IMG/VR virus record: IMGVR_UViG_2799113165_000002
Span: 1 to 64,000 of that record
Strand: one strand, 5' to 3'
From: a virus
Taxonomy: Duplodnaviria; Heunggongvirae; Uroviricota; Caudoviricetes
Length of the DNA stretch: 64,000 nucleotides
Every line of letters starts with the position of its first letter. The stretch's first letter is position 1. Shown here piece by piece: positions 31,838-32,728 of this stretch. The translations under genes and the position numbers were made by a program. The notes beneath the pieces were generated by a model. It ran no database searches. It had not been told where the DNA came from and saw only the letters and a program-made list of their open reading frames with translations.

Positions 31838-32017
31838 CTTCGTTTTCAGACAACAAAACAACGGACGACGTGAACAGAATGCAGGTCGGTTATCTCGGGG
31901 TACGCCCCCGTAGTTCAAGTTAGAACGCCCCGAGCCAAGCGGGGAAATGGAGCCAAACCCGCCCAGCGCCAACCACGTTCACGTCACCCCCAGGCCACAA
32001 CTACATAGACACCAGAT

Positions 32018-32145
32018 GGTGCGAGCAGGACGCAGGTCGGTTACCACTTGTAATGGAGAGGTCGCGGGTTCGAGTCCCGCCAGCCAGCCCCCGGCTGTAG
32101 CTCAGTTGGCAGAGCGCTAAACCCCGGTCAGCACACACACGTTCG
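32018..32145 (+). ncRNA. Y-RNA-like unit 1 (best resolved)
   Basis: 5' strand 32018-32046. Pseudo-anticodon region containing CTTGTAA. T-arm 32064-32080. Hairpin CAGCC-AGCCCCC-GGCTG 32081-32097. D-arm 32100-32115. 3' strand CTAAACCCCGGTCAGCACACACAC 32117-32140. Confidence 0.5.
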
Positions 32146-32310
32146 CCCCATCACCCAACACAACTCCATGCACAGCACGGTGTGAACAGGACTTCGTTCG
32201 GTTATCTCCTTTCCTGAGAGAGACGCGGGTTCGAATCCCGCCAGCCATGAAAGTGGTTGTAGCTCAGCGGCCTAGAGCGCTAAACCCGGACGAAACCCAT
32301 GCGTGCAGGC

Positions 32311-32445
32311 GGTGTGGACAGGACGCAGGTCGGTTACCAAAACAGTCAGGTGTGGGTTCGAGCCCCACCACCTCGCCCGCGGGGTGTAGCCCAATTGGTA
32401 GAGGCAATTGTCCACATAGGCCGGTCAGCACCCCACACGCCCACA
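32311..32445 (+). ncRNA. Y-RNA-like unit 3
   Basis: 5' strand GGTGTGGACAGGACGCAGGTCGGTTACC. T-arm GTGGG-TTCGAGC-CCCAC. Hairpin CACCTCG-CCCG-CGGGGTG. D-like GCCCAATTGGTAGAGGC. 3' strand GGCCGGTCAGCACCCCACACGCC. Confidence 0.45.
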
Positions 32446-32475
32446 CCACCTACGCGCACGCACGACAGACAACCC

Positions 32476-32600
32476 GATGTGAACAGGAAGCTCGGTCGGT
32501 TATCACTCAATTGGTTAATGCAGGTTCAATCCCTGTCGCCTGCACTTAGTGCGGGTGTAAAAGCGAAATCCCGGTCAGCACACACACGTTCACATCACCC
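32476..32600 (+). ncRNA. Y-RNA-like unit 4
   Basis: 5' strand GATGTGAACAGGAAGCTCGGTCGGTTATC. CTCAATTGGTTAATG. T-arm GCAGG-TTCAATC-CCTGT. Hairpin CGCCTGCAC-TTA-GTGCGGGTG. 3' strand AAATCCCGGTCAGCACACACACGTTCACA. Confidence 0.45.
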
Positions 32601-32728
32601 GCCCAATAGCCCTCGCGGGTGGCACGAGCAGGATCGCAGTCGGTTACCCCACCCCTCGCAAGGATGACGAACCCCGGCAGCCCTTCACACGTTCGCGCCG
32701 CCCGCACCCTCTAACAAGGAGATGCACG

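Follow-up and report, generated by a model that had tools for sequence, protein, structure and literature searches.

Six tandem units resembling YrlA-type Y RNAs precede a Ro60 gene on a probable Mycobacterium abscessus prophage

Bacterial Y RNAs of the YrlA type were described in 2014 as 355 RNAs from 254 bacteria and 22 phages, and were defined as lying at most 4 kb from a Ro60 gene on the same strand, with a stem that carries a Ro60-recognition motif and with central V, T, acceptor-like stem-loop and D elements (Chen et al. 2014, RNA 20:1715; PMC4201824). In Mycobacterium smegmatis, the genes for YrlA and YrlB are found upstream of rsr; the two RNAs come from a common precursor by processing and are bound by Rsr, and YrlA is cut by RNase P and has CCA added (PMC4201824). 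Binding by Rsr in vivo and modification by TruB/DusA are further marks of the YrlA type. PNPase is a known partner in Deinococcus radiodurans, Salmonella and the Thermus phage phiLo (PMC4201824, PMC12135203), and the Ro60 of phiLo binds two upstream Yrl RNAs as well as host PNPase (PMC12135203). We analyzed positions 1 to 64,000 of the viral record IMGVR_UViG_2799113165_000002 (this whole stretch is called the window below), which shares ~96-97% identity with the Mycobacterium phages prophiGD43A-5 (MW584167) and prophiT37-1 (OQ417969), two members of Cluster MabK found as prophages in M. abscessus (PMC8092301, PMC9934374). A preliminary description had read part of the window as a tandem array of about six circularly permuted, YrlA-like RNAs. 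We found six tandem units of 83-141 nt each at 31865-32701 on the + strand, immediately upstream of a Ro60 gene, and we consider it likely, at a probability of just under nine in ten, that they are a polycistronic set of six Y RNA genes belonging to that gene, on a Cluster MabK prophage of M. abscessus. The class of RNA has been known since 2014; the set found here is unusually large and varied.

The gene that follows the array, rsr (32729-34444, + strand; ribosome-binding site AAGGAG at 32716-32721), went unnoticed in the preliminary description. It encodes a Ro60 ortholog of 571 amino acids and, on the strand of the array, begins 27 nt past the end of the last unit at 32701; the array is thereby on the strand and within the 4 kb of the YrlA definition. 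The product matches the Pfam families TROVE (3.5e-46) and vWA_Ro60 (1.8e-63) as well as two solved structures, Rsr from D. radiodurans (2NVO, 2e-103) and Ro60 from Xenopus (1YVP, 1e-99), and its counterpart is labelled "Ro-like RNA binding protein" in both MW584167 and OQ417969. This phage Ro60 is presumed to be the protein partner of all six RNAs.

To delimit the units, we used a covariance model built for the purpose from related complete units (R1), which replaced the Rfam models, null at their gathering thresholds. In a scan of the whole 64-kb window, R1 matched exactly the six units of the array, numbered U0 to U5, and the next match had E = 0.23, which bears out the count given earlier. 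U1 scored highest (32016-32151, 143.4 bits, E 1e-30), followed by U3 (32309-32449, 101.3 bits), U2 (32183-32307, 90.2 bits), U4 (32474-32598, 73.3 bits), U5 (32619-32701, 36.8 bits, E 1.8e-06) and U0 (31865-31987, 34.4 bits, E 6e-06). A repeat finder recovered the shared 5′ strand six times, with the consensus GRYGYGARCAGGAC-N5-TCGGTTAYC, and the shared 3′ strand, CCGG-N5-A/C-rich-CACGYYC..., in five units.

Every unit is closed by its own 5′ and 3′ ends, which form an outer helix P1 of 9-13 bp and an inner helix P2 made of conserved UCGG/CCGG pairs and about five variable pairs. The internal loop between P1 and P2 has RCAGGA on its 5′ side (ACAGAA in U0) and an A/C-rich 3′ side, and P2 is followed by GGUUAYC, which corresponds to the "YUAY" that starts the V region (Chen et al. 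2014, PMC4201824). Covariation in this stem was measured on rsr loci (given L numbers below) gathered from annotated phages, viral contigs and bacterial genomes; sequence anchors only yielded 79 candidate units from 24 loci, or 78 after one false parse was removed. Unrestricted prediction of 5′/3′ duplexes mis-paired the strands of neighboring units, and was replaced by anchor-guided extraction of the strands of each unit, with 11 ambiguous units left out on anchor criteria rather than on pairing. In P1 (65 distinct sequences), 86.9% of cells were standard pairs, in contrast to 24-50% when the 3′ strand was slid by 1-3 columns; double-sided changes occurred in 168 cells (25-35 in the slid controls), and 10 of the 11 pairs covaried. 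P2 could not be registered in a single chimeric alignment because the length of the internal loop varies, and a second alignment, with TCGG/CCGG as anchors, served for its test; there four mutated anchors (five rows) were corrected by hand, two of these being compensated (GCGG/CCGC and TTGG/CCAA). Here 88.1% of cells in 60 sequences were paired, compared with 19-51% in slid controls, with 58 double-sided changes against 8-26 and covariation at eight of nine pairs. None of 500 shuffles reached the observed covariation score or percentage paired in either helix. Paralogs within the window also compensate (U1 GCAGGUCGG/CCGGUCAGC, U2 UUCGUUCGG/CCGGACGAA), and the P2 of U2 carries compensatory changes relative to both U1 and locus L031. 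The preliminary description would have given up its reading had the 5′ and 3′ strands shown no conserved pairing; the pairing is conserved and covaries in both helices. Its claim that complementary strands bracket every unit stands for these helices, but U2 lacks its outer 3′ strand in the window, and is thus the exception to a stem made by paired ends, as the YrlA definition has it.

This exception stems from a 34-nt deletion after position 32298 (32298/32299), which removed the outer 3′ strand of U2 together with the U2-U3 spacer. The deletion is specific to the window: the sequence CACACGCTCACACCRCCTCAAACRCCAGCAGACG is retained in all five aligned relatives (L001, L002, L031, L034 and L035). 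It may reflect a true difference between strains or an error of assembly, and because of it R1 matched U2 only locally (model positions 7-131).

With no structure supplied, RNAalifold folded 24 complete units into P1, P2, a T-arm, a 7-bp acceptor hairpin and a D-arm, with up to 11 double-sided changes per pair in the acceptor hairpin. In the window, U1, U2 and U3 share this interior, in which a 5-bp T-arm with a UUCGANY loop leads to a closed 7-bp acceptor-like hairpin, then U8-A9, then a 4-bp D-arm with GG. U1 (32016-32151), a complete YrlA-type unit, has a V hairpin at 32044-32056, the T-arm at 32064-32080, the acceptor-like hairpin at 32081-32097 (7 bp, loop CCC) and the D-arm at 32100-32115. 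U2 (32177-32298), YrlA-type and 3′-truncated, has the T-arm at 32225-32241, the acceptor hairpin at 32242-32259 (GAAA loop) and the D-arm at 32262-32278; its P2 is intact. U3 (32309-32449) is complete and YrlA-type, without a V hairpin, and has the T-arm at 32352-32368, a 7-bp acceptor hairpin at 32369-32386 (loop CCCG) and an imperfect D-arm at 32389-32405, with a 13-nt insert after the latter. The other units depart from this plan. U4 (32474-32598) has a T-arm at 32520-32536 and a 9-bp hairpin at 32537-32557 and is without a D-arm, 16 D-arm positions being deleted in its alignment to R1. U5 (32619-32701) is a mini Y RNA of 83 nt, a long bulged hairpin with a P1 of 13 bp and a small interior hairpin, whose P2 has lost one base pair from both strands. 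U0 (31865-31987) pairs 31867-31875 with 31977-31985 in P1 and has P2 and the loop motif ACAGAA; its predicted fold has three small hairpins inside, with neither T-arm nor D-arm. The V, T-arm, acceptor-like, D-arm order is therefore found in U1, U2 and U3 only. The preliminary description had placed all three tRNA modules in each unit: it had their order right, and they are all there in U1-U3, but U4 is without the D-arm and U0 and U5 are without both arms. Its view of U0 and U5 as degenerate agrees with this loss of both arms. The structure that it drew for U0, a 7-bp acceptor with one hairpin and CCA, had to be dropped, since it lies 11.4 kcal/mol above the minimum free energy (MFE) fold and has no comparative support.

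The insert of U3 contains TGTCCAC (32409-32415), which is perfectly complementary to GTGGACA (32314-32320), that is, to the 5′ strand of P1 and the start of the Ro60 motif. Such an alternative pairing would hide the Ro60 handle; it is absent from the MFE fold.

Ordinary tRNA genes would offer another account of these arms, either a tRNA-Thr(tgt) or tandem tRNAs whose arms only seem permuted. One tRNA-Thr(tgt), at 32012-32090, is called by ARAGORN and is listed as gene 51 in MW584167 (L001 4214-4292), but the same sequence is without tRNA annotation in OQ417969, and with the Rfam tRNA models the interval reaches only 18 bits (E 1.7). In the ARAGORN call, the closing strand of U1 is made to serve for the acceptor and D-arm, and the V hairpin for the anticodon arm. 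This hairpin is not conserved, its loop being 3-10 nt long or the hairpin absent, and the closest relatives have a 1-nt insertion in the loop; we accordingly rejected the V hairpin as a mimic of an anticodon arm. An Rfam tRNA model does score 33.7 bits at 32091-32249, but only by joining the D-arm of U1 to the T-arm of U2 over a 100-nt "intron" at the position of the anticodon arm. Chen et al. 2014 (PMC4201824) caution that a dimer of tRNAs may pass for YrlA, an artifact of which this call is the mirror image, and R1 matches a real tRNA cluster in L030. Against this, the acceptor strands of the units pair within the unit over loops of 3-4 nt, often UUCG or GAAA tetraloops, and these pairs covary. 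The collinear cloverleaf with an open 7-bp acceptor, an anticodon arm and a 3′ discriminator/CCA site that marks a canonical tRNA was not found in the array. Phage tRNA clusters, such as those of Cluster MabI prophages (20-24 tRNAs) and of Gordonia phage Forza, resemble the array in being tandem, on one strand, with T-arm and D-arm sequences and sometimes beside Ro60; their members, in contrast, are collinear cloverleafs that score 55-69 bits with the Rfam tRNA model, whereas the units here are permuted, have no anticodon arm and are closed by a predicted Ro60-binding stem. We regard tRNA genes as largely refuted and extremely improbable. The "tRNA-Thr" of the sister prophage in GenBank is a mis-call of the 5′ half of U1, which appears to be undescribed; the mis-calling of this region by tRNA finders had been foreseen in the preliminary description.

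The Y RNA units with a complete interior carry what look like the tertiary signatures of tRNAs. U8-A9, the GG of the D-loop and a TTCRANY T-loop occur in all 24 complete units, and the Levitt pair is G15:C48 in 19, A15:U48 in four (including U3 of the window) and A:C in one, so that, judged from these alignments, it covaries as in real tRNAs. A longer unit type in related loci (L037 1734-1904, L039 1737-1904, L045 2160-2302 and L046 2256-2395) has the D region GTGGCAGAGCGGCC(G/T)AATGC, which appears similar to D-arms in class II tRNAs, those with a long variable arm. It may be that the units differ in the class of tRNA that they mimic; the GTGGCAGAGCGGCC type is absent from the window.

If the units were functionless today, as remnants of tRNA-derived repeats in decay (pseudogenes or debris of duplication), one would expect what is seen in part: a copy number of 4-7 among related prophages, the deletion in U2, and the loss of parts of the tRNA-like domain from U0, U4 and U5. 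Decay does not, however, sit well with compensatory changes that keep P1, P2, the T-arm and the acceptor hairpin down to ~50% Ro60 identity, nor with a linkage to rsr that is universal. The reduced units are, moreover, conserved orthologs at fixed positions (the interior of U4 is 89% identical to that of L037_3, and mini units are always last before rsr), and we consider that remnants are very unlikely. On their predicted structures, U0, U4 and U5 are instead YrlB-like, with the P1/loop/P2 handle and without the full tRNA-like domain.

The proposed recognition site for Rsr, near the 5′ end of the RNA, is GNCGAAN0-1G, a consensus from seven sequences (Chen et al. 2014, PMC4201824). The homologous position, the 5′ side of the P1/P2 loop, reads RCAGGA in the window, GCCGGA in chromosomal Mycobacterium and GCCGAAG in more distant loci, and the loop motif of the window is by this alignment a positional homolog of the published motif with a variant sequence. 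CAGRA is present in all 33 units from loci in which Ro60 has 74% or more identity with that of the window, and CCGRW in all other units. The interior of U1 is 87% identical to that of L045_0 and 80% to that of the YrlA of phage Sparky, compared with 67-73% to its own neighbors in the array; on these identities the U1 type is older than the CAGRA/CCGRW split, and mini units occur in both loop-motif clades. The switch of motif therefore hit several pre-existing units in concert, which fits all units being read by one co-evolving protein. This clade-wide RCAGGA variant of the Ro60-binding motif appears to be undescribed.

Among the closest described systems are YrlA and YrlB of M. smegmatis: they are tandem, directly upstream of rsr and on its strand, their closing stem is made from the 5′ and 3′ ends, YrlA has a T-arm, a 7-bp acceptor-like hairpin and a D-arm, and YrlB, which U4 resembles, has a possible T-arm only. 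The link rests on the probe sequences printed in PMC4201824: U1 is identical at 20 of 23 nt, with no chance expectation, to the reverse complement of the M. smegmatis YrlA-5′ probe, and the core of the YrlA-3′ probe finds matches in the 3′ strands of U3 and U4. M. smegmatis has two units, in contrast to the six here (seven in some sister prophages), which are on an M. abscessus prophage. Chromosomal Mycobacterium loci (L003-L005) have the two-unit layout of M. smegmatis, but their loop is GCCGGA and they are without the U0 type and the U3 type that lacks a V hairpin. YrlA of Salmonella Typhimurium (RF02553; bioRxiv 10.1101/312249) likewise has a permuted T-arm, acceptor-like stem-loop and D-arm with tRNA-type tertiary signatures, and its anticodon stem is replaced by a helix that leads to the Ro60-binding module; its sequence is distant, however, and its gene is in the RtcR-controlled rtcBA-rsr operon rather than in a phage array. 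Phage phiLo (Nucleic Acids Research 2025; PMC12135203) has a phage Ro60 with the Y RNA-like Yrl1 and Yrl2 just upstream and a handle of stem, internal loop and stem, but its two RNAs were found through a CGAA motif, whereas here six differentiated units have an altered motif. The PNPase binding of the phiLo complex offers a plausible mechanism for the present locus. In D. radiodurans, Yrn1 and Yrn2 are also among several small RNAs upstream of rsr, and a Y RNA tethers Ro60 to an exoribonuclease (Ro60-Y RNA-PNPase, RYPER); this lineage is separate: its tRNA-like elements have another orientation, and the Ro-binding helix is like that of metazoan Y RNAs on both strands (PMC4201824). The YrlA-type reading put forward earlier is upheld by Ro60 downstream, the covarying stem, the RNAalifold architecture, the 20/23 probe match and sub-threshold matches of U1-U3 to the Rfam YrlA model.

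Several observations weigh against a set of six functional Y RNA genes. The strict motif GNCGAAN0-1G is found in none of the six window units and in 9 of the 78 homologous units. Infernal with the Rfam models, suggested earlier as a check, does match YrlA (RF02553) to U1-U3, but at 37.6, 28.8 and 26.7 bits, below the gathering score of 69 (the match of U3 at 26.7 bits is a full-length alignment). The interior of U0 gave no covariation across relatives, because all copies are nearly identical, and that of U5 has no comparative support; U2 is truncated and may be defective in this genome. A scan for promoters of the sigma-70 type, which is not tailored to mycobacteria, found none. In published RNA-seq of the GD43 lysogen, most of prophiGD43A-5 is described as silent (PMC8092301), so that the RNAs may not accumulate in lysogens. 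Finally, transcription, processing, Ro60 binding, the partners and early lytic expression are things that we only infer. As for the Rfam scores, at gathering thresholds Rfam found nothing in the window and nothing in 19 related actinobacterial and phage rsr loci with clear YrlA units, and the low score therefore reflects a limit of model sensitivity and is not evidence against membership. The Rfam YrlA model misses actinobacterial and phage members, and such RNAs are consequently under-annotated. The metazoan Y_RNA model has no match at E up to 10 in 31600-32800.

By analogy with characterized systems, we propose that rsr and the array probably share a single transcription unit lying amid the early lytic genes, with one precursor that would be cut into separate RNAs of ~80-140 nt; the adjacent BrnT toxin-antitoxin pair has been placed "within early lytic genes" (PMC8092301). 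A terminator-like scan found no + strand terminator between the array and rsr. This absence, and the 27 nt between the last unit and the start of rsr, would also suit an array that acts mainly in cis, as a structured leader at the 5′ end of the rsr mRNA (a set of autoregulatory Ro60-binding sites, for instance), rather than as separate stable RNAs, and co-transcription with rsr has been published for M. smegmatis (PMC4201824). In M. smegmatis, however, the homologous RNAs are released by processing as discrete species bound by Rsr (PMC4201824), a leader would hardly account for six differentiated modules that have tRNA-like tertiary signatures, and a conserved motif in the spacers between units suggests processing; we judge a mainly cis-acting leader to be very unlikely. 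Of 34 spacers, 16 contain this motif, A[ACT]AACT, mostly in the form ACAACTNNATAG; its density is ~21 per kb there, compared with 0.24 per kb in flanking DNA (~87-fold). Copies like ACAACTNNATAG are at 31999-32011 and 32159-32171 in the window and also in L031, L037, L043, L045-L047, L004 and L029, and the motif is a candidate processing signal or internal promoter element.

For the separate Y RNAs, the P1/loop/P2 stem would be the handle by which the phage Ro60 holds each RNA, and the interiors would be different "effector" modules: permuted tRNA-like in U1-U3, a T-arm with a long hairpin in U4, and small hairpins in U0 and U5. Each RNA could tether the phage Ro60 to a partner or gate access to the Ro60 cavity, and the tRNA-like units are potential ligands of RNase P, the CCA-adding enzyme, TruB and Dus enzymes. 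More tentatively, and with the odds in our estimation against it, MabK-type arrays, with 6-7 differentiated RNAs on one clade-specific RCAGGA handle, might be the largest Y RNA repertoire so far beside any bacterial or phage Ro60 and an adaptor set that in infection directs one phage Ro60 to several host partners (PNPase, RNase P or CCA-adding enzyme, tRNA-modifying enzymes), and the concerted C-to-A switch in the handle might be RNA-protein co-evolution that insulates phage ribonucleoproteins from the host Ro60/Y RNA.

The same architecture is found upstream of rsr, always on the rsr strand, in 50+ phage and bacterial loci. Counted as R1 matches at E <= 1e-3, the units number six in window-type prophages, seven in L031, L032 and L036 (Ro60 99% identical; an extra complete unit between U1 and U2), five in L037-L039 and L045, four in L043, L046, L047, L008 and L009, two in chromosomal Mycobacterium metagenome-assembled genomes and in phages Sparky, Cashline and Myrna, 2-3 in Catera, and one in Poribacteria. 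More distant Streptomyces and Microbacterium phages have one clear YrlA or scattered weak R1 matches. Tandem Y RNAs upstream of rsr are thus the rule in this group (2-7 units), with 6-7 at the top of the sampled range. The preliminary description had called such a multi-copy array on a phage unusual: six is indeed near the top of the range, but tandem Y RNAs are the rule and phage YrlA has been published since 2014. Since prophages with 99% identical Ro60 have an extra unit, copy number shifts on very short evolutionary timescales. Mini units hold the last position before rsr in relatives, as U5 does.

The papers on MabK prophages (PMC8092301, PMC9934374) give a tRNA count of 1 or 0 for the twin prophages and mention neither Ro nor Y RNAs. 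A full-text literature search, which did not reach the supplementary tables of Chen et al. 2014, returned no description of such arrays, and sets of six to seven units, as opposed to two in chromosomal relatives, appear to be undescribed. With them, prophages of a pathogen of clinical importance carry a complete Ro60/Y RNA system whose RNA set is expanded. Two features, namely the naturally occurring series of 2, 4, 5, 6 and 7 units and the CAGGA/CCGGA split between Ro60 clades, make a ready test of what determines Ro60-Y RNA specificity and of what purpose the tRNA-like module serves.

Two further observations concern the relatives of the array. The seventh unit of L031 (1743-1888; also in L032 and L036) is a complete YrlA-type unit with the T-loop TTCAAAT and an acceptor hairpin of CCCCGG/CCGGGG with a 10-nt loop. 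In phages Sparky and Farewell, the closest M. smegmatis phages (L025/L026 1494-2052), four annotated tRNA genes, two of which (Pro, Trp) reach the Rfam tRNA gathering score, lie just upstream of two Y RNA units and Ro60; by this layout, real tRNAs and Y RNAs can share one small-RNA cluster.

Upstream of the array, the terminator-like scan found a perfect 18-nt palindromic hairpin, GCTATACCGCGGTATAGC, at 31821-31838 on the + strand, followed by a T-rich run (TTCGTTTTCA). The palindrome is 27 nt upstream of U0 and is conserved in relatives; it is possibly a terminator, which would insulate the array, or else an operator or other site for protein binding. At the left end of the prophage, which the coordinate offset places at about window position 5978, a tRNA 3′ fragment (GGGGTTCGAATCCCTTCGGGCGCACCA; 5938-6077, core ~5975-6015) has no matching 5′ half. 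A weak R1 match at 5938-6077 was considered as a seventh unit and ruled out, being this fragment at the prophage junction. The fragment at ~5975-6015 probably represents the core of attL at a tRNA gene of the host (attB-1 for MabK phages), and if so, window positions 1 to ~5977 would be host chromosome. Two small open reading frames on the - strand upstream of the array (30901-31343) correspond to an antitoxin and a BrnT-like toxin (genes 49 and 50 of MW584167), and the pair is a ribonuclease-type toxin system that adjoins the Ro60/Y RNA module.

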